DNA of 24,000 bases, from contig JAOQNJ010000001.1 in NCBI GenBank assembly GCA_025961275.1, forward strand, positions 59,353 to 83,352, read 5' to 3'. The notes beneath the pieces were generated by a model. It ran no database searches, was not told the DNA's origin, and was given only the letters and a program-made list of their open reading frames with translations. The translations under genes were made by a program, and so were the position numbers. This document shows positions 336 to 24,000 of the stretch, piece after piece; within the stretch, counting starts at the first letter, position 1, and each line of letters starts with the position of its first letter. The stretch comes from Providencia alcalifaciens. Its GTDB lineage: Bacteria; Pseudomonadota; Gammaproteobacteria; Enterobacterales; Enterobacteriaceae.

Positions 336-1306
336 TGTGAGTATTAATATGATATGCGTCCTTCATTCATCAAGACATCTGTAATAGTACGTGCAAGTAA
401 AACCCGTTGTTCAAGTCATGATTACTTTTTGTTGGAGGAAGTTTTTCGTAGGTTGCACATTTTATTTCAAATTATTTTAGTTAAAGATAATAAACGTTCT
501 ATTTTTATGTAATAGATGTTTCTATCGGTTGCGTGAATAAAATAGGTGATGGCTAATTTGTTAAAATTACAACATAGAAGGATTATCACTCTAAGCTATT
601 AAATATATATAACTAATTATTGTAAATAAAAAAAGGAGATGTCATAAAAGCCAATATAAATATAATTTTTGCTATAAAATATAACTAGTTTGCATATAAT
701 AAAAAATAAATTCATAGCTTAAATTTAGCAATAAGTGTAAATAATTGTTTACGATTTTGGCTAAGTGGCGGTTTATCGCCTATTTTGAAAATTATTTACT
801 ATGTAACAAATAGTTAAATTTTGGTTATGTTAAGTGAGTTGCATCACATTTTTACTATTTTAACTCATATTAAGCTATGAGGCTGATTTTTAAATCAAAT
901 TTTTATTGAATGAAGTTATGTTTATCAGGTAAAGTCTGTGTCCTAGCGGTTGGTATAGTTGGTGTCACATTATATTTTACGCTGTTTTAAATCGAATAGA
1001 AGTCAATAAATGAATGGTTTATTAGGTTGACGCTAAATGAAATTAGTAACAAACTCTAGTCTTCGCAGAAATTCGCCAAAGAGTGATAGACGCGATAGAA
1101 TGCTGTCTACAGAGGGAAAGTAGTTCTTACAATGTATTATTAGTATTAACTAACCCCTTAAGCGAAAGCAAAAGCGCTTGATACAGATGTTCCTGTATCG
1201 TTATGCAACATAGCTACTAATAATAATGCTATGGGCAAACCCAGTATGTAACGTGACATGTTGCGTTATAATTTTAATTTTAGACTTACACACAGGGCTT
1301 ATCATC

Positions 1307-1819
1307 ATGTCTGCTTCTATTGTTAAGAAACGGCCGTTGAGTCGTTATATTAAAGATTTTAAACACAGCCAAACGCATTGCGCGCATTGCCATAAAACAC
1401 TGGATCGCATATCGCTTGTCTTTAACGATGCTATCTTAAATAAAGAAGCCATTGCTGAGATGACTCAACTTGTTGATGAAAGTGAATGGCTAGAGTTACA
1501 AGATAAATTTACTGCACTTTGTCGTTTTTGTAGCGAAATTTACTGCAATAGTAATACTGACTATTTTGACATCATGTCATTCAAACAGTACCTATTTTTA
1601 CAGACTGAAATGAGCCATAGCACAGTTCGTGAATATGTTGTCCGCTTGCGTCGCCTTGATGAGCTTTTATCTTCATCTAATTTCTCAATGAAAGAGTTTA
1701 CGCCAGCTAAAATTCAAGAACAGTTAAGTGACAAAATGACTGAATCTGCATTCAGTAATTATAATATTGCCCTGCGTAAATATGAGCAATATTTGTCTTG
1801 GGAATTAGAACAAAATTAA
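1307..1819 (+). CDS. fliZ: FliZ-family regulator (flagellar/RpoS-antagonist type, integrase core-binding-like DNA-binding protein), 170 aa
   Basis: The protein is colinear with E. coli FliZ as I recall it. Matching stretches are KKRPLSRYIKDFKHSQTHCAHC, ALCRFC, FKQYLFLQTEMSHSTVREYVVRLRRL and NYNIALRKYEQY. The start is moved from the track ORF start (1226) to the ATG at 1307, which corresponds to the FliZ N-terminus. The SD there is weak (CAGGG). Confidence 0.85.
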   Translation: MSASIVKKRPLSRYIKDFKHSQTHCAHCHKTLDRISLVFNDAILNKEAIAEMTQLVDESEWLELQDKFTALCRFCSEIYCNSNTDYFDIMSFKQYLFLQTEMSHSTVREYVVRLRRLDELLSSSNFSMKEFTPAKIQEQLSDKMTESAFSNYNIALRKYEQYLSWELEQN

Positions 1820-10774: not shown

Positions 10775-10790
10775 TGTGAGTTTGATCACG
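10775..10790. promoter_or_regulatory. Candidate CRP binding site of the sgc promoter
   Basis: TGTGA-GTTTGA-TCACG matches TGTGA-N6-TCACA at 9/10 positions. Its centre (10782.5) lies 41.5 bp upstream of the start site implied by the TATAAA -10 element at 10812-10817, which is class II geometry. Confidence 0.55.
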
Positions 10791-10811
10791 ATTACCCCAC
10801 CTTTTTTTGCT

Positions 10812-10817
10812 TATAAA
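10812..10817 (+). promoter_or_regulatory. Candidate -10 element (TATAAA) of the sgc operon promoter
   Basis: The hexamer matches TATAAT at 5/6. It lies about 43 nt upstream of the sgcX ATG and is correctly spaced from the CRP site. Confidence 0.4.
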
Positions 10818-10859
10818 TCGCTCACCTTTATGTCGTTTTATCAAAAGGAGCTTCTCCTT

Positions 10860-11981
10860 ATGGTTTTTTCTCTTCGAGATACGCTTTTTTCTTTATTGAC
10901 CTTAGATGGCATTTCTGGCCATGAATTACCTATCGCAAATGTAATGCAGTCGCATCTTAAACATAGTGCGAAGGATATTTGGCAAGACAGGTTAGGTAAT
11001 GTGGTTGCTTGTTACGGAAGTGATGCTCCAGATGCACTACGTTTGATGGTATTTGCTCATATGGATGAAGTGGGATTTATGGTTCGTAAAATTGAACCGT
11101 CAGGCTTTATCCGTTTCGAACGAGTGGGAGGCCCCGCACAAATAACAATGCCTGGTTCTGTCGTTCGGCTTGCGGGCGAGCATGGATCAATATCTGGATG
11201 TATTGGTATTAAATCCTATCATTTTGCTAAAGGAGAAGAGAGAACTCAAGCCCCTTCAGTTGACCAACTTTGGATTGATATTGGCGCAAAAGATAAAGCG
11301 GATGCTGAAAGAATGGGGGTTCAGGTTGGTACACCAATCACGCTTTATAATCCACCACAAGAGCTAGGCAATGACATGATTTGTAGTAAAGCGTTGGATG
11401 ATCGGCTTGGTTGCACAGCATTACTAGGTTTAGCTGATGCTGTAAAAGATAAAACCTTAGATATTGCCTTGTTTATTGTTGCTTCGGTACAAGAAGAATT
11501 TAATATCCGAGGTATCCTCCCTGTATTACGCCGTGTTAAGCCCGATCTCGCTGTGGGAATCGACATCACTCCCTCATGTGATACACCTGATTTAAAAGAT
11601 TATTCAGACCTAGTGATTAATAAAGGCGTCGGAATTACCTGTCTAAACTATCATGGTAGGGGAACGCTTGCTGGGCTAGTCACACCTGTTCGTCTGATTA
11701 ATCTGTTAGAAAAAACCGCATCTAAAAATCATATCCCTGTGCAACGAGAGGTTGCACCGGGGGTAATCACTGAAACTGGTTATATACAAGTTGAGCTGGA
11801 TGGCATTCCTTGCGCTAGCTTATCTATTCCTTGCCGTTACACGCATTCACCTGCTGAAGTTGCGAGTTTACGTGATCTCAACGACTGCATTCGGTTGCTT
11901 TCTGCATTAGCAACAATGCCTGCTAGTCAGTTCCCTATCGAGTTTAATTCAGATAACTATCAAGAGGTAACATCAAAATGA
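10860..11981 (+). CDS. sgcX: M42-family metallo-aminopeptidase/endoglucanase-like protein (SgcX/FrvX/YpdE family), 373 aa
   Basis: The protein is colinear with E. coli SgcX. Matching stretches are LRLMVFAHMDEVGFMVRKIEPSGFIRFERVGGPAQ, SKALDDRLGC, ASVQEEFNIRG and CRYTHSPAEVASLRDL. The start is moved to the ATG at 10860, preceded by AAGGAG at 10845-10850. The track start at 10776 (GTG) would lie inside the CRP site. Confidence 0.9.
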   Translation: MVFSLRDTLFSLLTLDGISGHELPIANVMQSHLKHSAKDIWQDRLGNVVACYGSDAPDALRLMVFAHMDEVGFMVRKIEPSGFIRFERVGGPAQITMPGSVVRLAGEHGSISGCIGIKSYHFAKGEERTQAPSVDQLWIDIGAKDKADAERMGVQVGTPITLYNPPQELGNDMICSKALDDRLGCTALLGLADAVKDKTLDIALFIVASVQEEFNIRGILPVLRRVKPDLAVGIDITPSCDTPDLKDYSDLVINKGVGITCLNYHGRGTLAGLVTPVRLINLLEKTASKNHIPVQREVAPGVITETGYIQVELDGIPCASLSIPCRYTHSPAEVASLRDLNDCIRLLSALATMPASQFPIEFNSDNYQEVTSK

Positions 11982-12256
11982 AAAAAATCCTCGTCGCTTG
12001 TGGCACAGGAATGTCGACATCAACAATGATTGCTCAAAAATTACAAAATTATTTATCCGATGAAGGATTTAGCGTGTCCACCTCACAATGTTGCTTAAGT
12101 GAGATCCCTTTAAACTGCCGAGGCGTTGATTTGATTATAACGGCTATGAAAACAGATACCGACTATGGCATACCTGTATTAAATGGAGCGGCTTTACTCA
12201 CAGGAATTAATGACGATGTATTAAAAGAAAAAATTAAAACGCTGTTATCCCAATAA
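11978..12256 (+). CDS. sgcB: PTS galactitol-family EIIB component
   Basis: The 92-aa ORF begins MKKILVACGTGMSTSTMIA, which carries the active-site Cys, and contains GIPVLNGAALLTGINDD. Its start overlaps the sgcX stop in an ATGA overlap. Confidence 0.9.
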   Translation: MKKILVACGTGMSTSTMIAQKLQNYLSDEGFSVSTSQCCLSEIPLNCRGVDLIITAMKTDTDYGIPVLNGAALLTGINDDVLKEKIKTLLSQ

Positions 12257-12277
12257 ACCTAACTAAAAGGTGGCGTT

Positions 12278-13591
12278 ATGTTTGACTATATACTTTCTTT
12301 AGGCGGTACTGTTTTTGTTCCAATAGTCATGATCATCATTGGGTTGATATTCCGCATTCCTTTATTACAAGCTATCAAAGCAGGTGTTACGGTCGGTATT
12401 GGTTTTGTCGGTATGGGTTTGGTTATCGTCATGGCGATTGACAGTCTGAGTTCCCCAATCAAAATTATGATTGAACGTTTCGGTTTATCTCTACATGTAC
12501 TTGACGTAGGTGCGGGGCCAGCATCTGGGGTGGGATATGCAACAGCAATTGGTGCGATGATTATTCCAACCATATTTCTACTCAATATTGCACTATTGTT
12601 TACGCGTTTAACGAAAACGATGAATGTCGATATTTATAACTATTGGCATTACGCGATCACTGGAACCGTAGTGCAACTTGCTACAGGTAGCATAAGCTAT
12701 GGTATAGCAGCCGCAATGTGTCATGCCATACTTTCGTTTAAAATGGCTGATTGGACAGCAAAGCGTGTACAAGCTATCGTCGGTTTGGAAGGCATCTCAA
12801 TTCCACAAGGGTATGGTTCTAGCTCTGTCCCCCTTTTTGTATTGCTCGATTCAATCTATGAAAAAATTCCATTCATGAAAGGAAAAAATGTTGATGCTCA
12901 AGCTATCCAAAAACGCTATGGCATGATTGGCGATCCGGTCATTATTGGGGTTGTACTTGGTTTATTATTTGGGTTAGCCGCAGGAGAAGATTTTAAAGGC
13001 TGTTCGACACTCGTGATCACGGTTGCGGCGATTATGGTGTTGTTTCCTCGAATGATCCGTTTGATTGTTGAAGGGTTATTGCCTATCTCTGAAGGTGCAC
13101 GAAAATTTTTCCAGAAACATTTTCGTGATCGCGAAGTATACATAGGCTTAGATACAGCGGTGACATTGGGACATCCAACTACGATAGCCGTTGGTTTAAT
13201 CCTCATTCCAATCATGCTAGTACTTGCGAGTATTCTTCCATTAAATAATGTGTTACCGCTGGCGGACTTGCCAGTTGCACCTTTCTTTATTTGTATGGCT
13301 ACTGTAATCCATCGAGGTGATTTACTGCGCACATTGCTTAGCGGTGTGATTGTGCTGAGTACGGTTTTGCTTATCGCAAGTGAGTTCGCGCCTTTCTTCA
13401 CCGAAATGGCTCGCAGTGGAGGATTCAATTTTGCCGAAGATGGGGCACAAATTAGTGCATTGTCCGTAGGTAATATGTTTGGTTGGTCTATCTACGAATT
13501 AATGTCATTTGGTTTTATTGGCGTAATAGTGACAGTGGGAATTGTCGCTTGTGTTGTTATCTTCTTACGCAATTGTGAACTATCAGAATAG
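12278..13591 (+). CDS. sgcC: PTS galactitol-family EIIC permease
   Basis: The 437-aa polytopic membrane protein is nearly identical in its N-terminus to E. coli SgcC (MFDYILSLGGTVFVPI...GVTVGIGFVGMGLVIVMAIDSLS). The match continues through NVDIYNYWHYAITGTVVQL. Confidence 0.92.
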   Translation: MFDYILSLGGTVFVPIVMIIIGLIFRIPLLQAIKAGVTVGIGFVGMGLVIVMAIDSLSSPIKIMIERFGLSLHVLDVGAGPASGVGYATAIGAMIIPTIFLLNIALLFTRLTKTMNVDIYNYWHYAITGTVVQLATGSISYGIAAAMCHAILSFKMADWTAKRVQAIVGLEGISIPQGYGSSSVPLFVLLDSIYEKIPFMKGKNVDAQAIQKRYGMIGDPVIIGVVLGLLFGLAAGEDFKGCSTLVITVAAIMVLFPRMIRLIVEGLLPISEGARKFFQKHFRDREVYIGLDTAVTLGHPTTIAVGLILIPIMLVLASILPLNNVLPLADLPVAPFFICMATVIHRGDLLRTLLSGVIVLSTVLLIASEFAPFFTEMARSGGFNFAEDGAQISALSVGNMFGWSIYELMSFGFIGVIVTVGIVACVVIFLRNCELSE

Positions 13592-13601
13592 GAGTATGGA
13601 A

Positions 13602-14408
13602 ATGAGTTGGTTAAAGGAAGTTATTGGAACAGAAAAAGCAGTCATTGCCATGTGTCATTTGAGAGCGCTGCCGGGGGATCCTGATTTTAATCGGCATCAT
13701 AACATGCAATGGGTACTTGATAGAGCATATGACGACCTAATGGCGTTACAAAATGGGGGGGTGGATGCGGTTATGTTTTCCAATGAGTTCAGTTTACCTT
13801 ATCTCACTAAAGTCAAACCTGAAACCACTGCTGCAATGGCGCGGGTTATTGGCCAATTAATGGGAGAAATACGTGTACCTTTTGGTGTGAACGTACTTTG
13901 GGATCCCGTTGCCTCCTTTGATTTAGCCATGGCAACGGGTGCTAAATTTATCCGAGAAATATTTACGGGTGCTTATGCAAGTGATTTTGGTGTATGGGAT
14001 ACCAATGTAGGTGAAACAATTCGCCATCAACACCGAATTGGGGCTAGTGATGTAAAAACACTGTTTAATATTGTACCTGAAGCCGCTATTTATTTAGGTG
14101 GACGTGATATTTGTTCCATAGCGAAATCGACCGTTTTTAATAATAAACCTGATGCTTTATGTGTTTCTGGGTTAACTGCAGGAGCAAAAACAGATAGTGC
14201 TATTTTAAAGCAAGTGAAAGATACGGTGCCGGATACTGTCGTTTTCGCGAATACGGGAGTTTGTCTTGAAAACGTTGAAGAACAACTCAGTATTGCTGAT
14301 GGATGTGTGACGGCTACCACGTTCAAAAAAGACGGTGTTTTCGCCAATTTTGTTGATCAGTCACGAGTTGAAAGATTTATGGAGAAAGTGCAGGGCATAA
14401 GACAATAA
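13602..14408 (+). CDS. sgcQ: BtpA/SgcQ-family TIM-barrel protein of unknown function, 268 aa
   Basis: MSWLKEVIGTEKAVIAMCHLRALPGDP and GGVDAVMFSNEFSLPYLTKVKPETTAAMARVIGQL match E. coli SgcQ. The start is set at the ATG at 13602, 7 nt after AGGAG (13590-13594). The track start at 13542 lies inside sgcC. Confidence 0.9.
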   Translation: MSWLKEVIGTEKAVIAMCHLRALPGDPDFNRHHNMQWVLDRAYDDLMALQNGGVDAVMFSNEFSLPYLTKVKPETTAAMARVIGQLMGEIRVPFGVNVLWDPVASFDLAMATGAKFIREIFTGAYASDFGVWDTNVGETIRHQHRIGASDVKTLFNIVPEAAIYLGGRDICSIAKSTVFNNKPDALCVSGLTAGAKTDSAILKQVKDTVPDTVVFANTGVCLENVEEQLSIADGCVTATTFKKDGVFANFVDQSRVERFMEKVQGIRQ

Positions 14409-14409
14409 A

Positions 14410-14436
14410 AAGAGATAAGTCAAAAACTTATCTCTT
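14410..14436. other. Perfect 11-bp hairpin directly after the sgcQ stop codon
   Basis: AAGAGATAAGT-CAAAA-ACTTATCTCTT. A T-run follows the stem only when it is read on the minus strand (TTTATTG). On the plus strand an A-run precedes it. Confidence 0.5.
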
Positions 14437-14450
14437 GGAATAATGAATCA

Positions 14451-14494
14451 ATAGAGACCCCGCAATCTTCGCCAAAAGGTAGGCGGGGCTCTAT
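14451..14494. other. GC-rich interrupted hairpin in the sgcQ-sgcA spacer
   Basis: ATAGAG(A)CCCCGC pairs with GCGGGGCTCTAT. That gives 12 bp with one bulged A and a 19-nt loop. No T-run follows on either strand. Confidence 0.45.
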
Positions 14495-14533
14495 AAACAA
14501 GCATATACAGAACTCCAAAGGAGTCAATATACA

Positions 14534-14968
14534 ATGATTGATGATGTAAAATGGATCCAAATAAACCAAGTGGCTAAGGATTGGAAAGATGCTATCGCTA
14601 TTGCCTGTACACCTTTAATTACCCATGGTGCAGCTGAGCCACGTTATTTACAAGGTATCATTGAAAACACCAAAAATTGGGGGCCGTATTACTTAATTGC
14701 TCCAGGTATTGCAATGCCTCATGCAAGACCCGAGCAAGGTGCGATTCATAATCAAGTCGCGGTAACTATACTCAAACATCCCGTTGTTTTTGGTCATGAA
14801 GATTGTGATCCTGTGTGGTTATTAATTGGTGTTTGCGCCACACAGAGTGATGACCATATTCGATTAATCCAGCACATTACCCAGTTTATTGATAATTCAG
14901 TATTACTTGATGAAATTCGTGTTGCTCATACAGCAAGTGACGTTTTTACATTAATAAATGCACAGTGA
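14534..14968 (+). CDS. sgcA: PTS EIIA component (EIIA-2, mannitol/fructose/ascorbate type)
   Basis: The 144-aa ORF contains GPYYLIAPGIAMPHARPEQG with the phosphorylatable His, and DPVWLLIGV. It is colinear with E. coli SgcA. Confidence 0.9.
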   Translation: MIDDVKWIQINQVAKDWKDAIAIACTPLITHGAAEPRYLQGIIENTKNWGPYYLIAPGIAMPHARPEQGAIHNQVAVTILKHPVVFGHEDCDPVWLLIGVCATQSDDHIRLIQHITQFIDNSVLLDEIRVAHTASDVFTLINAQ

Positions 14969-14990
14969 TATAGATATGAGGGGAATTGCG

Positions 14991-15620
14991 ATGATCATAC
15001 ATCCATCTTTGGCTTCAGCTGACCCTCTGCGTCTGGGGGACATTATGGATAATTTTGCTAATGAAGAGATTGGTTCACTCCATTTAGATATCGAAGATGG
15101 TAATTTTATCAGTAATATTACTTTTGGGCTCAAAGTGGTGAAGGCTGTTTCACAAGTGACAAAGCACGCATTATCAATCCATTTAATGGTTGTACAGCCT
15201 GCTTTTTGGATACGAGAACTCGCTCCTTTTAGTCCTAAATGGATTTTCTTTCATCCTGAAGTTGTTCAAAATCCTTCAGAAATTATTGCCGAGATAAAAA
15301 AGATAGGCGTCAAAGCCGGTTTAGCATTGAACCCCGCAACACAGTTTGAGCCTTACCAGTATTTAATTGAACAGTTTGATGCTGTAATGGTGATGACGAG
15401 TGAGCCTGATGGGCACCATCAACAATTTATTTCTAATATGAAAGATAAGATTCAAAAAATTACACAAATGTCACCAAAATTAGCGTGTTGGGTCGATGGT
15501 GATGTCAATCTGGATAACATCACAATATTAAAAAAAGCCGGTGCAACGCACTGTGTAGTGGGTAGATCGCTTTTTTCAAACGATAATTACGCTATAACGC
15601 TTGAAAAATTAAGACATTAA
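14991..15620 (+). CDS. sgcE: Ribulose-phosphate 3-epimerase paralogue, 209 aa
   Basis: MIIHPSLASADPL, GSLHLDIEDGNFI, FHPE, LNPAT and VMVMTSEPDG are Rpe-family motifs, and the protein is colinear with E. coli SgcE. The start is set at the ATG at 14991, with a GAGGGG SD upstream. Confidence 0.9.
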   Translation: MIIHPSLASADPLRLGDIMDNFANEEIGSLHLDIEDGNFISNITFGLKVVKAVSQVTKHALSIHLMVVQPAFWIRELAPFSPKWIFFHPEVVQNPSEIIAEIKKIGVKAGLALNPATQFEPYQYLIEQFDAVMVMTSEPDGHHQQFISNMKDKIQKITQMSPKLACWVDGDVNLDNITILKKAGATHCVVGRSLFSNDNYAITLEKLRH

Positions 15621-15638
15621 ATTCGGAAGGAGACAGCG

Positions 15639-16412
15639 ATGAGTTTGTATAAATCTGATCGGATCCAGCAGATGTTACATTATCTTTGGAAATGTCGAGA
15701 GCTTTCAACGCAGCAAGCTATTGAACTATTTGGATGTGCAGAAGCTACTATCCGGCGCGATTTTCAATATATTGCCGAGCATTATCCAGGAATGAAGCGA
15801 ACGCATGGGCGTCTTGATTTTGATGATAGCACCACAGATAAAGAGTCCCAATTTGATGTTAGGCGTTCCTTAAATTGTAAATTTAAACGTGAAATTGCCT
15901 TAATTGCTCGTGAATTAATTCATGAAGGAGATTGTTTTTTTCTTGATTCAGGCTCTACATGCCTTGAATTAGCAAAATGCCTAAATGATATTAAAGTGAA
16001 AGTGATTTGTAATGACATAAAAATAGCCAATCAATTAGGTGCGTTTCCAAATGTGGAAAGCTACATTATTGGAGGTCTAATAAGACCGGGCTACTTCACG
16101 GTTGGGGAAAGTTTAGCACTAGAAATGTTAAATTCATTTGCGGTTGATCGCGTATTTATGTCTTGCGATGCACTTTCTATCGAAATGGGAATCACTAATG
16201 CCACGATGTTTGAAGTTGGGGTAAAGCGAAAATTGATTACACGTTCTCAGGAGGCCATTTTACTTGCAGACCATACTAAGTTCGATATGTTTGAGCCACA
16301 TGCAGTTGCAACCTTGTCATGTATTAAGACCATTGTAACTGATAGCGGTTTATCGAGTGAAATCCAACAGCGTTATCGGCAGGCTGGATATGAATTAAAA
16401 TGTGGTTATTAA
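15639..16412 (+). CDS. sgcR: DeoR-family transcriptional regulator (HTH plus DeoR-C sugar-phosphate sensor domain)
   Basis: The 257-aa ORF has an N-terminal HTH (LSTQQAIELFGCAEATIRRDF) and C-terminal DeoR-type motifs (FLDSGSTCLELAK, DRVFMSCDAL, LLADHTKF). It occupies the last position of the sgc operon, as in E. coli. The symbol is assigned from context. Confidence 0.8.
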   Translation: MSLYKSDRIQQMLHYLWKCRELSTQQAIELFGCAEATIRRDFQYIAEHYPGMKRTHGRLDFDDSTTDKESQFDVRRSLNCKFKREIALIARELIHEGDCFFLDSGSTCLELAKCLNDIKVKVICNDIKIANQLGAFPNVESYIIGGLIRPGYFTVGESLALEMLNSFAVDRVFMSCDALSIEMGITNATMFEVGVKRKLITRSQEAILLADHTKFDMFEPHAVATLSCIKTIVTDSGLSSEIQQRYRQAGYELKCGY

Positions 16413-17343
16413 TTTTTTTTATAACTTCTAAAGAAATAAAAAATTGCGTTGGATAAAAGATGTGAACCCAAATACTCTGTCTTATTAGATGAAATCTATA
16501 GCCTATTTCTTCACTCAGCCTAAGTACATCTAAACTGTAAATTCACTGAATAAAGCAGATCAAAGAATAATACGAAATCATCACATCAGTAGGGTTGTCC
16601 GATTGATTGAGGATTTCTGATAAGTAAATTCCGCAAGTAATAATTAAAAATGTAGCATATTATCTGGTTTCAACATAACGTGACTGTCCCGCGAGTTTTT
16701 AGACTAATTAAATATTCAATAGCGAGATAATGGAAATAAATAACGCCAATATAGTGCTTTTAGTTCATTGATAGAGCCTTGTGGCTATTTATCTTTGCCG
16801 CTGATTTTTACTGACTAATCGGTTTAAATAACAGCAATAAACTCATATCACGTAATTGAGTGTCTAAAAAAACATCACCCTAAACCCTAAATGAAAAGCG
16901 CCCTTCGGGTTCGATTAAACGCGATTTTTCGCTGTATTGAGCGACTCTCGCCTTGCTTGAAATACGTGCAATTAGAATCAAAATTGACCTTCAAAGATAA
17001 ACAGCGCCTAGTGCTTAAAATTAAATTTTTTAAATGCGAGCTATTAAGGCTAAACAAATATCATGTTTAATTGCTAAATTAGCAATATATTATACTTATA
17101 TTTTTGAGTTGGAATAAAGCCAAATTAAAATAAAATATAAGTATTTAAAATAAAGATTAAAATTTAATATTATGTTTGGGGATTAATCTAAGCTTCTAAT
17201 TTTAAGCCTCTTTATTATTAAAAAAACGTAATCTGATGTTGAGAAAGTTAGTTATAACAATTTAATGTAATAAATGAGCGTGGAATCACAGTAATTAATT
17301 CTCCTTTAAGATTAGAATCTATTTAATCTTCAGGAGGAATTCT

Positions 17344-17793
17344 ATGATCTCAAGTTTTGCTTCATTTATAAAAATAAGCTTTCTATTTTTGCTCTCTTTT
17401 GATTGCAAATCTAGGGCTGTTTTGAGCAAAATTTGTTGGTTTATTCCTATCTCTTCTTTAGAAAAAGATGAGTCAATTTATAATCAGCAGTCAGAAAGTG
17501 ATATTTCGACTAATTGGTCTCAGTTATGGCTGAGTGCTCAGAAACTTTGTGTTTCTTTATGCTCAAATACGGCTGAAATTATTGAAAATAAAGTTTCTTC
17601 GAAACAATTAACGTCGCTTAAAGCGCGTAAGCGTTATGAACTACTGTTCTTATCCCTTGTTTCAAGCTTACGCCAATTGATGGTTTGCCGTCACTCAAGT
17701 GGTGCGCCTGGAAATATTAACGGTTCATCATTAAAGCTTTTAAAAGCACAATGCGCATTTTTGCCATTGTGCTTTTTTTATTATCTAAATTAA
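17344..17793 (+). CDS. Hypothetical 149-aa protein or leader ORF with no recognisable family
   Basis: This is the only long ORF in a 1.4-kb AT-rich gap. It has a strong SD (AGGAGG, 17332-17337) 6 nt before the ATG and a hydrophobic N-terminus (MISSFASFIKISFLFLLSF). It is Ser/Leu/Cys-rich and uses several rare codons. An intrinsic terminator lies inside its last 17 codons, so its coding status is uncertain. Confidence 0.4.
   Translation: MISSFASFIKISFLFLLSFDCKSRAVLSKICWFIPISSLEKDESIYNQQSESDISTNWSQLWLSAQKLCVSLCSNTAEIIENKVSSKQLTSLKARKRYELLFLSLVSSLRQLMVCRHSSGAPGNINGSSLKLLKAQCAFLPLCFFYYLN
17742..17779 (+). terminator. Strong intrinsic terminator or attenuator immediately upstream of the PTS IIB gene
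   Basis: AAAAGCACAATG (17742-17753) pairs with CATTGTGCTTTT (17765-17776) in a 12-bp stem. The loop is CGCATTTTTGC and the T-run spans 17773-17779 (T7). The structure ends 32 nt before the IIB ATG and 12 nt before the stop codon of the 149-aa ORF. Confidence 0.75.
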
Positions 17794-17811
17794 ATTTTTC
17801 AAGGAGTTGTT

Positions 17812-18132
17812 ATGTTTATAGTTTGTGTCGCGGCGTGCCCTACAGGAGTTGCTCATACTTATATGGCTGCGGAATCGCTCGATATTATTGGGAAAAAAAG
17901 AGGACATGAAATAAAAGTTGAAACCCAGGGAAGTATGGGGATTGAAAATGAAATTACAGATGAAGATTTAGCGCGTGCAGATGCGGTCGTGCTTGCAGCA
18001 GATGTTGCCATTATCAATAGAGAGCGCTTTGATGGGATGATTAAACTTGAATGCAGCGTTGCAGATCCCATTAAGCACGGAGATGCCATTTTTGATGCGA
18101 TAGAGCAGGAGATAAATAATGGTGAAGTTTAA
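17812..18132 (+). CDS. PTS fructose-family EIIB component (FrwB/FryB-like)
   Basis: The 106-aa ORF has VAACPTGVAHTYMAAESL with the active-site Cys in the CP(T/S)GVAHT motif, and KVETQGSMG. AAGGAG lies 5 nt upstream of the ATG. Confidence 0.9.
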   Translation: MFIVCVAACPTGVAHTYMAAESLDIIGKKRGHEIKVETQGSMGIENEITDEDLARADAVVLAADVAIINRERFDGMIKLECSVADPIKHGDAIFDAIEQEINNGEV

Positions 18133-19234
18133 AGGGGGCTCAACACCAGGTATTGGTACTGAGATTAAAAATGCCATTATGACCGGTGTATCATGGATGC
18201 TGCCATTCGTGATTGCAGGTGCAGTGATTATGGGTATTTCTCGTATCGGTGCATCGATGTATGGCATTGATAATATTTGGGATTCAAGCCATGCAGAAGC
18301 GACCAATGTCATCATTCAGATGCTACATAAATTTGATGGTTTTGGTGGATTAGCGCTGTCATTAATGCTGCCTATTGTCGCGGGCTATATCAGTTTTGCG
18401 ATAGCTAATAAGCCAGGTTTAGCACCCGGTATGGTGGGTGGATTACTGGCGAGCAATCTCGGAACTGGCTTTCTTGGCGCGCTTGCAGCTGGGTTTATTG
18501 CTGGATGTATGGTTCGATTATTGGCTAAATATATCAAACTACCAAAGTCACTTGCTTCAGCAGGGCCAATCTTTATCTTGCCAGTAGGTGGAATATTACT
18601 AACCTGTTGCATCATGGCATTTGTGATTGGCGCTCCTTTAGCTGCGCTTAACCATGGAATGGAAAATTGGTTATTATCCATGTCTGGTTCTAACAAGATT
18701 ATTTTAGCGATGGTTATTGGTGCGATGGTGGGCTTTGACCTTGGTGGACCGATAAATAAAGCCGCTGTCACCACCGCAATGGCATTGTTGGCATCGGGAA
18801 TTTATGAACCAAATACTGCGGCACAAGTTGCTATCATTATTCCACCGATTGGTATTGGTGTAGCAACCTTAATATGGGCAAAACGTTTTCCAGAATCTTT
18901 GCGTGAAGCAGGAAAAGCCTCCACATTAATGGGATTAATTGGGGTTTCAGAAGGTGCAATTCCATTTGCTTTAGCGAATCCAAAAATCATCATTATTAAT
19001 ATTATTGGCTCTGCAACGGGCGCGGCAATGGCTGTCGGCCTTGGTACGTTAAACCATGCACCTATTTCTGGATTTTATGGATGGTTAGCTGTGGATAAAT
19101 GGCCGATATATGTATTATCGGTAGCGGTGGGCTCCGCAATTATTACAGTTGGGTCATTATTAATTTTTCGTGGGGCTGAACCAGTAGAAAATAAAAAAAC
19201 AGAAGCTGCTCCTAAATTTAAAGTAGGTCGTTAA
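18119..19234 (+). CDS. PTS fructose-family EIIC permease (FrwC/FryC-like)
   Basis: The 371-aa polytopic membrane protein has MTGVSWMLPFVIAG, FDLGGPINKAA and GVSEGAIPFA, which are characteristic of fructose-type IIC. It overlaps the IIB gene by 14 nt, and AGGAG lies 8 nt upstream of its ATG. Confidence 0.9.
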   Translation: MVKFKGGSTPGIGTEIKNAIMTGVSWMLPFVIAGAVIMGISRIGASMYGIDNIWDSSHAEATNVIIQMLHKFDGFGGLALSLMLPIVAGYISFAIANKPGLAPGMVGGLLASNLGTGFLGALAAGFIAGCMVRLLAKYIKLPKSLASAGPIFILPVGGILLTCCIMAFVIGAPLAALNHGMENWLLSMSGSNKIILAMVIGAMVGFDLGGPINKAAVTTAMALLASGIYEPNTAAQVAIIIPPIGIGVATLIWAKRFPESLREAGKASTLMGLIGVSEGAIPFALANPKIIIINIIGSATGAAMAVGLGTLNHAPISGFYGWLAVDKWPIYVLSVAVGSAIITVGSLLIFRGAEPVENKKTEAAPKFKVGR

Positions 19235-19331
19235 TCGCATCGTTATATTATTAAAACAATAATATATTAATTAGCGTTTATAACGTTATGGATCCGTTCA
19301 CCCTAAAAAAGATTATTTAAAGGTTACATAA

Positions 19332-21917
19332 ATGAAAACCGTACATTTAATTCAACACACTCACTGGGATCGGGAATGGTATTTCACTGAAAATGATTCT
19401 AAAGTTATTCTTTATTATTTTATGAATGATTTAATGAATCATTTGGAAGAAGACCCGTCTCTAGGTCCTTTTATTCTTGATGGACAAACGGTGGTGTTGG
19501 AAGATTATTTACAAATTGCACCAGAGCAGCGTGAACGTTTACAACAATTAATTAAACAAGGCCGAATTCTTATTGGGCCTTGGTATACCCAAACAGATTT
19601 TTTAGTTGTCGGTGCCGAGTCTATTGTTCGTAATTTACTTTTAGGACGAGCAGATTGTGAAGCTTGGGGTAGCTATATGCCTGTTGGTTATGTGCCTGAC
19701 TCATTCGGGCAAAGTGCTCAGCTTCCTCTATTTTTAAATGAATTTGGTATTAAGCATGCCGTGGTGTGGCGTGGGTGGTGCGAACATGATGTAGCAAATA
19801 GTGAATTTATCTGGAAATCCCACTCAGGACATCATGTCACGGCAGCAGTGTTGCCTTGGGGATATGGTTGCGCCAAATGGTTGCCAGATAATACAGAGAA
19901 AGCACTAACCGTACTCCCGACGATCCTTGAAAAACAAGCTCGTTTTGCGCATTCAGACCAAGTTTTATTGCCGAACGGTAATGACCAATCGCCATTTGAA
20001 TACACGGTTCCTGCAATGTTAGAGCGCTTGAATACCGAGCAAAAAGAGTATTATTTTGTAAAAAGTAGCTTCAGTACCTTTTTCGAGGCTTTACAAGCGA
20101 AAAGCCAACAACTTACTGAATTTAGTGGTGAACTACTTAGCCCTAAATATATGCGTGTCCATCGTGGAATTTTCTCCACTCGCATGGATATAAAATTACT
20201 CAATGCTCAGCTTGAACAATTTGTGAGCCAGCAACTCGAACCATTATTATCGATCAATTGGCGATTAGGACTGCCTTATCCACACACTGCAGTGGAAAAT
20301 ATCTGGCGTGAAGCGATGCAATCCCATGCACATGACAGTATTGGTGGATGTAATTCAGATAGAGTCAACAGTATGGTTAAAGCGCGATTAAAAGATGGAT
20401 TAGAAAGTGCAAACCAATTGTATGATCTCAATATGAAAATGTTAGCGAGAGGGGTTGAAGCAACGCAGGAAGGTAAGAAAATAATTGTATTCAACTCACT
20501 CCCTCATAAACGTGACGCACAGGTTCGTATTACCTTATATACGCCAGAGACTGATTTTTGTATCAAGGATCACAATGGTAAAGCCTGTCGTTGGCAGTTA
20601 ATCCAAGAACAACCTCAAGATATGTCATTGATTGTTCAAGAACTAGCGAATAGTACAACAACAACGTGGTATCGCAAATGTGAAGTATTACTTGAAGTAA
20701 CGGATTTACCTTCTTGTGGTTATCGCACGCTTTACCTTCAAGAAGGACAAGCTGCGGGCTTTGAATTTGAACCTCAAATGCAAGAACAAAATGCATTAGA
20801 AAATGAATGGCTACGGCTTGAAATCAATCAAGGCGAATTAACATTAATTGATAAACGTAGTCAGCAACGTTATCCGCATGTTTTACGTTTAGTCGATGGT
20901 GGAGATTTTGGAGATAATTACAACTATTCCCCACCAGAAGAAGATTGGTTGATTAGTAGTGATGGACACTTACAGCAATTTGAATGTGTGAGAGCGCCAT
21001 TAATGGATAGTTTTATTTTGAATTGGAAAATGCCAGTTCCACAAAATGCACAAGCTCGCCAAGCACATCAATTAAACGCTGTTTTAGAAACGACCATGAA
21101 GGTTTCTTTACCTCATGATAACGCATGGTTAGATATTGAAGTTACGGTCAATAATACGATTCAAGATCACCGTTTACAGGTTGAGATACCAACCGAAATT
21201 CTACAAGAATTCCATTTTGCTGATCAACCATTTGGTTTAATTCAGAGAGAAAATCAGCCAGCAGCACTTGAGCTTTGGCAAAATGAAAACTGGTCCGAGG
21301 CTCCAACGGCTTTGTACCCAATGCAAAGTCTCGTTATGCAACATAATGATCATCAAGGAATATGTGTCGTTACAGAAGGTTTACGTGAATATGAAATTCC
21401 AGCATCTCGTACTGATGTGATTGGATTGACCTTATTCCGAAGTGTTGGTTGGTTAGGTCAAGCAAACCTAACTTGGCGTCCAGGGCGGGCCTCTGGCATG
21501 GTTTTACCTTCACCGGATTCACAAATTCAGGGTATTCATCATTTTCATTTTGCTGTGTTACCAATGCATCAAGGCCAAGATACCGATTTCTGGCGAAATG
21601 TGGAACATTGGCGCTTACCCGCGTTCGGTTATTTAGATTCAGGTTGGTCACAATTTAAAATGAATCCACATTATATTGTTTTTCCTGAAAATTATAGTCT
21701 TTTGACTTGGGATTGTAACTTGCATTTCAGTACGCTAAAAAAAGCGCAAAACGAGGATGCATTAGTGTTACGTAGCTGGAATCCTAGTTTCGAACCAATA
21801 ACGTACGAGTCGCCTAAGTCAAATACCAAGATCCAACAAGTTACTTTAGCTGAATCTGCGTGTACCAATACGGATAGTGCAGCGCCTTGTGCGCCAGTGT
21901 CTTGGTTAATTAGTTAA
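19332..21917 (+). CDS. Glycoside hydrolase family 38 alpha-mannosidase (MngB-like, cytoplasmic)
   Basis: The 861-aa ORF has HTHWDREWYFT, GPWYTQTD, ESIVRNLL, VPDSFGQS, LPNGNDQ, MRVHRGIFSTRMDIK and HAHDSIGGC. It is colinear with E. coli MngB and other GH38 enzymes and has no signal peptide. Confidence 0.92.
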   Translation: MKTVHLIQHTHWDREWYFTENDSKVILYYFMNDLMNHLEEDPSLGPFILDGQTVVLEDYLQIAPEQRERLQQLIKQGRILIGPWYTQTDFLVVGAESIVRNLLLGRADCEAWGSYMPVGYVPDSFGQSAQLPLFLNEFGIKHAVVWRGWCEHDVANSEFIWKSHSGHHVTAAVLPWGYGCAKWLPDNTEKALTVLPTILEKQARFAHSDQVLLPNGNDQSPFEYTVPAMLERLNTEQKEYYFVKSSFSTFFEALQAKSQQLTEFSGELLSPKYMRVHRGIFSTRMDIKLLNAQLEQFVSQQLEPLLSINWRLGLPYPHTAVENIWREAMQSHAHDSIGGCNSDRVNSMVKARLKDGLESANQLYDLNMKMLARGVEATQEGKKIIVFNSLPHKRDAQVRITLYTPETDFCIKDHNGKACRWQLIQEQPQDMSLIVQELANSTTTTWYRKCEVLLEVTDLPSCGYRTLYLQEGQAAGFEFEPQMQEQNALENEWLRLEINQGELTLIDKRSQQRYPHVLRLVDGGDFGDNYNYSPPEEDWLISSDGHLQQFECVRAPLMDSFILNWKMPVPQNAQARQAHQLNAVLETTMKVSLPHDNAWLDIEVTVNNTIQDHRLQVEIPTEILQEFHFADQPFGLIQRENQPAALELWQNENWSEAPTALYPMQSLVMQHNDHQGICVVTEGLREYEIPASRTDVIGLTLFRSVGWLGQANLTWRPGRASGMVLPSPDSQIQGIHHFHFAVLPMHQGQDTDFWRNVEHWRLPAFGYLDSGWSQFKMNPHYIVFPENYSLLTWDCNLHFSTLKKAQNEDALVLRSWNPSFEPITYESPKSNTKIQQVTLAESACTNTDSAAPCAPVSWLIS

Positions 21918-21935
21918 TTATTAAAGGTATCATTT

Positions 21936-23486
21936 ATGCAAACATTTTTTTTTCGTTGCGAACTTTCGAATGGTATCCATGCTAGGCCTGCCAATGCATT
22001 GGAGCAACAAACAGCGAATTTTCAATCAGAGATAACGCTATTCAATAAGAGTAAATCTCGTCAGGCAAATGCTAAAAGTGTTTTGGCATTAGTCGGAGCA
22101 GATGTCACCATGGGTGATGAATGCTATTTTCAAATTCAAGGAATTGATGAAAATATTGCTTATGAAAAGCTCAAATCATTTATTGAACAAGAGTTTATGC
22201 ATTGTGATGCTCCAATTGTTCATGAAGAGTCTACAGAGCAACAAGCACTGCCTGTTTTTATCAGTCGCACAACATCCTCTATTTTGCGTGGAAATGGTGT
22301 TAGCAAAGGGCTAGCAAAGGGTAAAATTGTTTTTATTCATTCGCCAGATTTGCAAAATTTGGCCCAAGAAGAATCTGATAGTTCATTAGCTCAGCAATCC
22401 GAAGCACTCAAAAATGCATTGCAAATTGCACGTGAAAAACTTCGCTTTGATATTCAACATGCTGAGGGCGAAATTGCCAATATATTAGAGGCACAAAGTC
22501 AGTTACTTGATGATGAAGATGTTGAAGCGTGTTTACTTGAGCAAAATCAGGCACGCAATGAGATAGACGCATTGGCAATGGCAATTGAAGAATTAAGCCT
22601 GCCATTCCGTGAAAGTAGCAGCGAATATTTACGCCAACGTGAGTTGGATATTAAAGATTTAGGATTGCGGATTGCCATCAATCTTAATATTAAGTCCAAG
22701 ATTCAATTACCTGAATTAAAACAAGATTCTATTATTGTATGCCATGGGTTGTTAACACCGGGACAGTTACTGACATTACAAAGTCCTTATTTGCAAGGTG
22801 TGGTAATGGCTCAAGGTGCGGAAACATCACATACTGTTATTATAGCTCGCGCTAATTCTATTCCACTTATGTGTGTGAGTAATGATGCAATTGAAGCATT
22901 AAAAAATGCACACTCTTTACTACTGGATTCACGCTATGACGCGTTAGTTGTTGAGCCAGATATTCGTGCAGAGGATTGGTTTACGTTTGAAAACGACAAA
23001 TTATCTCGCTTATCGTTATTCAATGAGCAAACTGACTCTGACATGCCTGTGTTAACACCACACTTAGTCTTGCTTGATAAGGTGATAACTAGCAAAGATG
23101 AAGTGATCAAGATACTGACTGATAACTTAGAGATCAAGGGTCGTACTGATTCAGGCTCTCAGGTTGAATTTGCTATTTGGCAGCGCGAACAAATTTTCAG
23201 TACTGCTTTAGGATTTTCAATTGCTATTCCACATTGTAAATCGTTGGCTGTTAAGCACAGCAGTATTTCCGTATTGAGATTGTCTGAAGAATTAGCTTGG
23301 GGAGATAATGTTGATGTTAAATTAATCATTATGTTGACGATTAATGAAAATGAAGAAAATCAACATATGCGAATTTTTTCTGTACTCGCACGAAAATTAA
23401 TGCATGAATCGTTCCGTGATCAAATAATGACTGCTAAACACCCAAGTGAGGTCGTTGCTTTATTAGAGAAGGAATTGGCATTATAA
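21936..23486 (+). CDS. Multiphosphoryl transfer protein: HPr domain, Enzyme I N-terminal (HPr-binding plus phosphohistidine) domains and EIIA(Fru/Mtl type). The PEP-binding C-terminal domain of EI is absent.
   Basis: Residues 1-90 form the HPr domain, with NGIHARPA (His15, nt 21978-21980) and KS at 47-48. Residues ~115-345 are colinear with E. coli EI residues 1 to ~250, including GAETSHTVIIARANSIPLM (His299, nt 22830-22832). Residues ~372-516 are an EIIA-2 domain with AIPHCKS (His433, nt 23232-23234). Only about 25 residues link the EI swivel domain to IIA, so there is no room for the ~300-aa PEP-utilizer TIM barrel. Confidence 0.88.
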   Translation: MQTFFFRCELSNGIHARPANALEQQTANFQSEITLFNKSKSRQANAKSVLALVGADVTMGDECYFQIQGIDENIAYEKLKSFIEQEFMHCDAPIVHEESTEQQALPVFISRTTSSILRGNGVSKGLAKGKIVFIHSPDLQNLAQEESDSSLAQQSEALKNALQIAREKLRFDIQHAEGEIANILEAQSQLLDDEDVEACLLEQNQARNEIDALAMAIEELSLPFRESSSEYLRQRELDIKDLGLRIAINLNIKSKIQLPELKQDSIIVCHGLLTPGQLLTLQSPYLQGVVMAQGAETSHTVIIARANSIPLMCVSNDAIEALKNAHSLLLDSRYDALVVEPDIRAEDWFTFENDKLSRLSLFNEQTDSDMPVLTPHLVLLDKVITSKDEVIKILTDNLEIKGRTDSGSQVEFAIWQREQIFSTALGFSIAIPHCKSLAVKHSSISVLRLSEELAWGDNVDVKLIIMLTINENEENQHMRIFSVLARKLMHESFRDQIMTAKHPSEVVALLEKELAL

Positions 23487-23772
23487 CAAATTAAAGTAAC
23501 ATTCATTTAAAATAAATATTAAGTATTGTTAAAAAAGTTTTTAATTTAAAAACGAAATAACAATCAATAATGTTGAGATAACTCATAATTCTTTTTAATT
23601 TTACAGTTAAAAGAATAGGGATGGCTTTGCCAAAAAATAGGTTTAGCCATCTATCAATAAATAAAAATACAGGAGGAGGTTTAATTTAATTAGCTAACCA
23701 CAGTTCAAGTATACAGAAATAAATATCATTATTAAAAACTACAAAATATAATTTTAGTATAGGAACAAATTG

Positions 23773-24000
23773 ATGAAACATTTAACTCTTGGTATCTCTA
23801 CACTGCTGATTTGCTCTGCTGCTAACGCAACTTATATTGATTATCGTCACGAATGGTTAGGTGATGAGCATCGTCATGAAGACCGCATTAAAATTGGTCA
23901 TAGCATGCAAAATGGCACCTATTTTAGCCTTGAAGGTAAGTGGAGAAGCAAAGATGGTGGCTTCATAGAAAATTTATCCTCAAAAGGTAATGAAGTCGAG
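23773..24000 (+). CDS. KdgM-family (oligogalacturonate/NanC-type) outer-membrane porin, 5' partial (76 codons, runs off the window)
   Basis: My own translation gives MKHLTLGISTLLICSAANA/TYIDYRHEWLGDEHRHEDRIKIGHSMQNGTYFSLEGKWRSKDG. That is a signal peptide ending ANA, followed by the IDYRHE...DR...H...G...EGKW beta-strand pattern I associate with KdgM-family porins. SD AGGAA lies 7 nt upstream of the ATG. Confidence 0.6.
   Translation, partial: MKHLTLGISTLLICSAANATYIDYRHEWLGDEHRHEDRIKIGHSMQNGTYFSLEGKWRSKDGGFIENLSSKGNEVE

Follow-up and report, generated by a model that had tools for sequence, protein, structure and literature searches.

An EIN-retaining multiphosphoryl transfer protein without the PEP-binding domain of Enzyme I in a mannosidase phosphotransferase operon of Providencia alcalifaciens

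To our knowledge, DhaM is the only characterised fusion of HPr with the N-terminal domain of Enzyme I (EI) that stops before the phosphoenolpyruvate (PEP)-binding domain. We likewise know of no other EI N-terminal domain (EIN) that has been studied while working without its PEP-binding partner (EIC), and of no explanation of why EIN is kept there. DhaM is reportedly phosphorylated three times by PEP, on three histidines, in a reaction that depends on EI and HPr. Phosphotransfer between EIN and HPr runs in both directions, and EIN on its own accepts phosphate from phosphorylated HPr (HPr~P), not from PEP. Within EI, the swivel subdomain reaches EIC inside one polypeptide of a dimer that is held together by EIC, and EIN detached from it should serve poorly as a substrate. 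The enterobacterial FPr (FruB) is a reduced multiphosphoryl transfer protein (MTP) whose HPr domain is charged directly by general EI. Comas et al. 2008 (PMC2405797) found the MTP group with the architecture HPr-EI-IIA(Fru) to be monophyletic and described some MTPs as undergoing reduction in Vibrionaceae, Pasteurellaceae, Enterobacteriaceae and Shewanellaceae. They derived FPr and YcgC (DhaM) from EI-containing proteins and hypothesised that an acquired general EI had made the EI domains dispensable (PMC2405797). Here we describe an MTP gene at 21936..23486 on the plus strand of a 24,000-nucleotide stretch of the P. alcalifaciens contig JAOQNJ010000001.1, hereafter the window, in an operon for a sugar phosphotransferase system (PTS) and a mannosidase. 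Its product has the order HPr, EIN and fructose-type IIA (IIA-Fru). On comparative grounds, it is probably a functional EIC-less MTP that cannot draw on PEP and obtains its phosphate from the general PTS, most likely via EIN as in DhaM; it would depend on the general PTS because EIC, the sole PEP-binding domain known for this family, is absent.

The open reading frame (ORF) starts with ATG and encodes 516 residues. The Pfam search revealed four domains, each above its curated cut-off, and the three modules with their histidine motifs stood in the order that a preliminary description of the sequence had claimed; the gene call rests on the ORF, the Pfam matches and an AlphaFold2 model. The HPr-like domain at residues 8-84 (21957..22187, plus strand as for the features below; PF00381, PTS-HPr, 61 bits) carries His15 within GIHARPA (codon 21978-21980). 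EIN comprises a helical, HPr-binding subdomain at residues 118-235 (22287..22640; PF05524, PEP-utilisers_N, 42.5 bits) and a swivel phosphohistidine subdomain at residues 262-332 (22719..22931; PF00391, PEP-utilizers mobile domain, 36 bits), in which His299 lies within ETSHT (codon 22830-22832). The fructose/mannitol-type IIA at residues 372-512 (23049..23471; PF00359, PTS_EIIA_2, 126 bits) contains His433 within IPHCK (codon 23232-23234), and this region scored 105.5 bits against TIGR00848 (fruA IIA), with a cut-off of 103.5. Between the swivel subdomain and IIA, an alignment gap and a modelled helix delimited the retained C-terminal helix of EIN (residues 343-361) and a deletion junction at residues ~364-366 (together 22962..23045).

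PF02896 (PEP-utilizers_C), which represents EIC, was unmatched in the 516-residue protein even at E = 1. A tblastn search with EIC segments of five long homologues, covering the window and the DNA up to 10 kb from the short-form gene at 11 orthologous loci, revealed no EIC remnant (best E = 0.038). The earlier claim that EIC is missing from the ORF was thus borne out there and also in the adjacent frames and flanks. The stop codon is followed by an AT-rich spacer of ~290 nucleotides and then, from about 23774, by a KdgM-family porin gene. One detail had to be corrected, as the segment from ALVVEPD (residues 336-342) to IIA, previously given as about 25 residues, is actually about 30 residues long, ~19 of which form the retained EIN helix.

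Searches of the Protein Data Bank (PDB) with phmmer aligned residues 123-343 to residues 8-233 of E. coli EI and residues 117-348 to residues 2-239 of the EIN of T. tengcongensis. From these matches, the retained piece can be regarded as a classical EIN, and we take His299 to be the equivalent of EI His189. A structure prediction, which the preliminary description had proposed as a check, agreed with the domain assignments. The AlphaFold2 model, built with 22 homologues as input, had a predicted local distance difference test score of 85.7 and a predicted template modelling (TM) score of 0.75; only the linker between HPr and EIN (residues 89-101) was disordered, and the long helix 343-361 reached the junction. 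Foldseek comparison of the model parts with solved structures gave TM-scores of 0.73 for EIN (1zym), 0.75-0.85 for IIA-Ntr and IIA-Mtl and about 0.9 for HPr. The previously noted resemblance to DhaM was also evident, as the best NCBIfam alignment placed residues 11-338 on positions 165-471 of the 473 positions of the DhaM model, that is, on its HPr and EIN part, with 108 bits against a cut-off of 520. The scores for the Enzyme I family (PtsI, TIGR01417; 106.6 bits against a cut-off of 341.7, model positions 1-287 of 565 only) and for the FPr (FruB) family (74.5 bits against a cut-off of 302) were likewise below their cut-offs.

A search of 5.8 billion proteins revealed ~22 clusters of 508-529 residues with the identical four Pfam domains and with 49-96% identity to the window protein. 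These short forms were found in Providencia (P. burhodogranariea and P. rettgeri), several Cedecea, Chimaeribacter and strains labelled Enterobacter sp. The next-best relatives were HPr-EI-IIA proteins of 823-852 residues with PF02896, showing, over the HPr, EIN and IIA modules in common, 42-49% identity when enterobacterial and 33-37% when from Vibrionaceae or Psychromonas; as anticipated in the preliminary description, the closest full-length relatives are thus proteins of ~830 residues with the same domain order that have kept PF02896. In an alignment of 121 sequences, all short forms shared a single gap of ~361 columns at the same position. The gap begins after residue 364, just past the C-terminal helix of EIN, and ends immediately ahead of IIA, and the missing columns correspond to EIC and its linker to IIA in the long homologues.

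We then compared loci, taking one genome per species and recovering 11 short-form and 26 intact long-form loci. Gene order and spacing (IIB-IIC-GH38-MTP, GH38 being a mannosidase of glycoside hydrolase family 38) were identical in all of them, with Vibrio, Photobacterium and Psychromonas among the long-form loci, so the short and long MTP genes can be treated as orthologues within one operon. The short forms were monophyletic in neighbour-joining trees of the shared MTP columns (100/100) and of concatenated IIB, IIC and mannosidase (99/100); the short clade was nested among enterobacterial long forms, while Buttiauxella and the Vibrionaceae/Psychromonas sequences lay outside. These results indicate that the short form descends from a ~830-residue HPr-EI-IIA(Fru) protein at the same operon position. 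The simplest history would be one in-frame deletion that took exactly EIC and the linker and left EIN complete, followed by long persistence. In C. arupi DSM 115072 the operon is carried on a 251-kb plasmid; this location helps to explain the presence of the operon in three families of Enterobacterales.

The ratio of nonsynonymous to synonymous substitution rates (dN/dS) was calculated by the Nei-Gojobori method for eight short-form pairs. It was 0.08-0.32 in HPr, 0.08-0.31 in the EIN helical subdomain, 0.14-0.30 in the swivel subdomain and 0.10-0.17 in IIA, and long-form pairs gave 0.04-0.27. For the whole gene among Providencia, dN/dS was 0.13-0.23 at a dS of 0.7-1.4, which is near or at saturation. 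An isolated in-frame deletion in an otherwise full-length orthologue, which the preliminary description had named among the findings that would overturn its reading, is excluded by the ~22 clusters in at least four genera, their common junction and this purifying selection. The same data bear on whether the protein is merely a crippled MTP remnant in an operon that is near loss or is served by another IIA. Damaged copies, namely the in-frame TAG of Chimaeribacter coloradensis, a Cedecea His433Gln substitution and a split C. arupi mannosidase gene (all detailed below), would fit such decay, as would the further short form P0122, a singleton whose nearest kin is a long form at 75% identity. Nevertheless, we regard decay as hardly credible. 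The frame is intact, the junction is common to ~22 clusters, the three histidines are kept, dN/dS stays low at the Providencia divergence given above, and IIB, IIC and the mannosidase are intact in 11 of 11 short-form loci. The selection data contradict decay.

At the residue level, His15 and His299 were invariant in 22/22 short forms and His433 was present in 21/22; His15 was also invariant in a 27-sequence alignment of short and long forms. The E-x-SHT core around His299 was likewise invariant in 22/22 short forms, as were LLxDE (190-194) and YLRQRELDxxD (231-241), which align to the HPr-binding helices of EI. Of the positions with at least 90% conservation across 99 long forms, the short forms retained this level at 20/23 in HPr, 8/10 in the helical subdomain, 17/25 in the swivel subdomain and 40/43 in IIA. 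Only the swivel subdomain was clearly relaxed: G295 (the second Gly of GGxTSH), I309 and D331 are no longer fixed in short forms, and at equal mannosidase divergence swivel identity was 0.49 in short pairs versus 0.65 in long pairs, and 0.60 versus 0.74. This relaxation fits a swivel freed from docking to EIC that must still carry and transfer the phosphoryl group. We conclude that EIN is required rather than vestigial. In a search for residues that would mark a re-tuned interface, L224F was the only fixed difference between short and long forms.

These patterns also bear on a route like that of FPr, in which phosphorylated general EI would charge His15 directly and the phosphate would pass to His433 and IIB. 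EIN would then lie off the main path and be kept for folding or spacing, for docking, as a phosphate buffer in equilibrium with His15, or for a regulatory contact. Such a route is simpler and consistent with an HPr domain that is equally conserved in short and long forms (the 20/23 positions above), with the partly relaxed swivel positions and with the evolutionary scenario in PMC2405797. We nonetheless consider it unlikely, as it leaves unexplained the strict conservation of His299 and of E-x-SHT in 22 clusters down to 49% identity, the invariant HPr-binding helices and the low dN/dS of the EIN subdomains.

To see how often EIC has been lost, a profile search of 1.84 billion cluster representatives was carried out. 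Three more short forms (P0122, P0166 and P0186) of 520-531 residues were found, each a single-stretch full-length match with the four domains, no PF02896 and the three histidines kept. The P0122 gene lies in a frw-like locus with IIC, IIB, a pyruvate-formate-lyase-like enzyme and its activase, a second IIB and an AraC regulator; with a long form as its closest kin (75% identity) and no further short relative detected, it can be regarded as a recent singleton. P0166 is represented by two genomes whose proteins are 79% identical, one being plasmid pPAT9B04 of Pantoea sp. At-9b (WP_013512692.1), and belongs to a different PTS cluster; the nearest long relatives of P0166, at 62%, are on Klebsiella plasmids. 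On these Pantoea-type plasmids (L081 13000-15510; L083 12625-15135) the short gene lies ~3.4 kb from an 836-residue MTP with PF02896, and each of the two MTP genes is accompanied by separate IIB and IIC genes. The P0186 gene lies on a short metagenome contig that appears to be of high GC content, as judged from the protein sequence. In the bootstrap analysis, the short forms as a whole formed one group in 0/100 replicates, and each joined its respective long sister in 98-100/100. Given this grouping, the HPr-EI-IIA(Fru) family appears to have undergone at least four independent losses of EIC, with EIN kept each time, and two of the four short lineages are known from more than one species or genome. 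The retention of His299 in three further independent lineages speaks again against direct charging of His15, and that EIN never disappeared alongside EIC in four losses would be unexpected if it were dispensable for phosphotransfer. Two kinds of match were set aside. A Planctomycetota match over query residues 12-511 (L050) was rejected as a short form, being an rpoN-hpf-ptsN-ptsI cluster with separate genes, and HPr+EIN-only matches of ~360-460 residues (P0228, P0230, P0241, P0244 and others) were left uncounted, since several stop at or just inside the EIC start and may be contig-end fragments.

We infer that the phosphate donor to the 516-residue protein is a general PTS protein. In the route that we favour, which the preliminary description had also put forward, general EI would generate general HPr~P, which would phosphorylate His299 of EIN; the phosphoryl group would then move to His15 of the fused HPr, to His433 of IIA and to the IIB cysteine. 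The latter would phosphorylate the incoming mannoside, and the GH38 enzyme would cleave the product. The transporter would no longer draw on PEP itself and would be subordinate to the phosphorylation state of general HPr. This route via EIN is suggested by the DhaM precedent and by the reversibility of the EIN/HPr reaction, and it would explain why His299, the HPr-binding helices and EIN as a whole have survived every loss of EIC.

EIN might also be charged in trans by a foreign EIC, with PtsI, PtsP or a full-length MTP paralogue phosphorylating His299 from PEP without general HPr. The full-length 836-residue MTP beside the short gene on the Pantoea-type plasmids offers a possible partner, and EIN is intact including its C-terminal helix. 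No EIC-bearing gene was found, though, within 10 kb in the window and the 11 orthologous short-form loci, and the swivel positions facing EIC, such as the second Gly of GGxTSH, are relaxed, as if docking to EIC were no longer selected. We therefore judge charging in trans to be improbable, more so than direct charging of His15. Going beyond the charging of EIN by general HPr~P, one could tentatively regard EIN as a portable, reversible phosphate adaptor that is the sole port through which general HPr~P feeds the fused HPr and IIA, which have co-evolved. The loss of EIC would then have been adaptive, having occurred at least four times in this family and again in DhaM; we consider this generalisation possible but rather doubtful.

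Several observations weigh against charging of a functional protein through EIN. In C. coloradensis 2016-Iso4 (L005 10001-11545), an in-frame TAG replaces Gln at codon 355, at the junction of EIN and IIA; an ATG five codons past it could restart an IIA-only protein, and the TAG may reflect a genuine split of the gene, a pseudogene or an error in sequencing. A two-member cluster of Cedecea davisae (P0015) has ILQCK for IPHCK, that is, His433Gln; IPHCK is unchanged in the locus of C. davisae DSM 4568 (L006). The dN/dS of the short MTP gene is slightly above that of most long-form pairs. Compared with P. burhodogranariea, the MTP is 84% identical, IIB and IIC are 97-98% identical and the mannosidase is 93% identical, so the MTP evolves faster than its neighbours. 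Of the three extra short lineages, two are singletons and could reflect recent decay. Purifying selection on EIN is proof of need and not of a position on the main path. Finally, ptsH and ptsI were found neither in the window nor in the fetched loci, and the presence of general EI and HPr in the source organism is assumed, as for Enterobacterales generally. Damage was also seen outside the MTP gene. The mannosidase gene on the C. arupi plasmid (L084 4401-6933) is annotated as two pieces, and in Kluyvera genomosp. 3 YDC799 (L039) the operon is pseudogenised: the frames of IIC and the mannosidase are truncated, and the MTP match is broken into fragments. Some strains can evidently do without the operon.

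The other operon genes lie upstream of the MTP gene on the same strand. A fructose-type IIB with the cysteine motif ACPTG (17812..18132; PF02302; TIGR00829, 103 bits against a cut-off of 77) is the presumed acceptor of the phosphoryl group of IIA. It is followed by a fructose-family IIC (18119..19234; PF02378; TIGR01427, 255 bits against a cut-off of 158) and by a GH38 alpha-mannosidase (19332..21917) with the Pfam GH38 N-terminal, middle and C-terminal domains. The latter is a paralogue of MngB (mannosylglycerate hydrolase) and scored 870 bits against NF007331, under the equivalog cut-off of 1138. The head of the operon is formed by an ORF of 149 residues (17344..17793) with a strong Shine-Dalgarno sequence, homologous ORFs in 33 loci and the label 'hypothetical protein' in Providencia annotation; it matched neither Pfam nor NCBIfam. 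Its substitutions are biased towards third codon positions and its dN/dS is 0.16-0.43, and for these reasons it is probably a real protein.

A terminator-like hairpin followed by a T-run (17742..17782, plus strand; folding energy -19.3 kcal/mol, z = -5.4) lies ~30 nucleotides 5' of the IIB start codon, within the 3' end of the 149-residue ORF. It is kept in 13 loci, spread over Enterobacterales and Vibrionaceae (the window, L001, L002, L003, L006, L008, L012, L017, L020, L025, L032, L034 and L036), and in Psychromonas, Photobacterium and Vibrio the stem sequence has changed and still pairs. Because the region is translated in different frames in different genera, the RNA structure appears to be the conserved entity, and the hairpin looks like an operon attenuator. 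When 16300..24000 was scanned for promoter and terminator consensus sequences, the counts did not exceed those of shuffled sequence, and the scan missed this hairpin, which was later spotted by eye; Rfam revealed only chance matches below threshold in 16400..17900.

The MTP gene had been called the last gene of the operon. It is the last of the IIB-IIC-GH38-MTP set, but the transcription unit may continue into the syntenic porin gene ~290 nucleotides on, and the consensus scan predicted no terminator between the two. The start of this porin gene (23774..24000, plus strand, cut by the window end) was identified by tblastn with 65% identity to a Klebsiella KdgM-family protein. A porin is found 3' of the MTP gene in Providencia and Klebsiella loci, and PF06178 (Pfam) matched the orthologues in L001 and L012, where the corresponding region spans 11828-14691 and 12544-15470, respectively. 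A protein of ~700 residues with Metallophos as its only domain match was present in 19 loci of both short and long form, usually downstream. As the porin and the Metallophos protein accompany it, the locus exceeds the four PTS and mannosidase genes.

Upstream of the operon, the window contains putA, putP, an amino-acid permease gene and an sgc-like PTS cluster (10776-16412, plus strand) encoding an M42 peptidase, EIIC-GAT, BtpA, IIA, a ribulose-phosphate 3-epimerase family protein and a DeoR regulator. In P. burhodogranariea the cluster is missing and the operon directly follows the permease gene; because of this adjacency, the cluster can be viewed as an insertion or deletion polymorphism. 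The following ~930 bp (16413-17343) contain no ORF of at least 60 residues on either strand. At the equivalent position, the Klebsiella, Kluyvera and Scandinavium loci have two AraC-type regulators, and tblastn with two AraC-type regulators of Klebsiella-type loci revealed no remnants of them in the window. Next to putA, an ORF of 197 residues (1226-1819, plus strand) matches phage integrases in their N-terminal SAM-like domain alone; it lacks the catalytic domain and may be a truncated integrase.

The locus adds to DhaM a natural, conserved and recurrent second case of EIN without EIC, here within a true sugar-transporting PTS. It overturns nothing and offers a clean natural system for the study of EIN without its catalytic partner. 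The long and short orthologues in the same operon are matched pairs with which the role of a lone EIN and the backflow in vivo of phosphate from HPr to an EI domain could be addressed, as could the question of whether loss of the PEP domain ties a transporter to a global signal of sugar status. If the route from HPr~P is true, the transporter would be active only while general HPr carries phosphate and would rank below preferred PTS sugars, which is speculation on our part. If EIN is in addition a general adaptor, loss of EIC would place a self-powered transporter under the control of general HPr, with a built-in sugar hierarchy. With the short and long pair on Pantoea-type plasmids, one could find out if a short MTP receives phosphate from a full-length one. 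In databases, short forms are named 'fructose PTS transporter subunit IIA', 'HPr family phosphocarrier protein' or 'Multiphosphoryl transfer protein 1'. Such names hide the EIC-less architecture, and domain-based metabolic models should not count the short forms as PEP-using.

Among known systems, the long HPr-EI-IIA(Fru) MTPs of the E. coli FryA and PtsA/FrwA type share their domain order and all three histidine motifs with the 516-residue protein. The closest long orthologues, in the same mannosidase operon, are those of Klebsiella, Kluyvera, Buttiauxella, Scandinavium, Superficieibacter, Vibrio, Photobacterium and Psychromonas. In contrast to the 516-residue protein, the long MTPs carry EIC, which provides PEP binding and dimerisation, together with the linker, and in principle charge themselves. 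The 516-residue protein is therefore FryA/PtsA-type by descent, yet fails the defining EIC feature of that group. In the fructose PTS, FPr (FruB) is a reduced MTP with IIA(Fru) and HPr that has lost EI function and relies on general EI (PMC2405797). Whereas FPr has lost the whole of EI including EIN and has the order IIA, remnant domain and HPr, the 516-residue protein keeps EIN and has the opposite order. We found no description in the literature of an HPr-EIN-IIA(Fru) protein or of such an architecture in a sugar PTS, and this is the first sugar-transporting reduced MTP with EIN kept in the literature searched. The novelty suggested earlier needs qualifying, since reduction of enterobacterial MTPs (FPr, YcgC/DhaM) with takeover by general EI was already proposed in 2008 (PMC2405797). 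In these terms, the 516-residue protein is a further case of MTP reduction, in the third MTP group.

The retained module has the boundaries of laboratory EIN fragments (PDB 1zym, 1eza, 3eza and 5woy), but here it is natural and lies between HPr and IIA. DhaM (YcgC), the donor for dihydroxyacetone kinase in E. coli, likewise contains HPr and an EIN ending at the same point. The IIA of DhaM is of the mannose type and N-terminal, whereas that of the 516-residue protein is of the fructose type and C-terminal; accordingly, no EIIA-man domain was matched in the latter, and the DhaM model aligns only from position 165 onward. The acceptor of DhaM is ADP on DhaL and no transport is involved, in contrast to the IIB cysteine here, and the neighbouring genes are PTS IIB, PTS IIC and the GH38 mannosidase rather than dhaK and dhaL. 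DhaM is independent in origin, from a different MTP group. By analogy, the 516-residue protein would work most like DhaM, but it is no DhaM.

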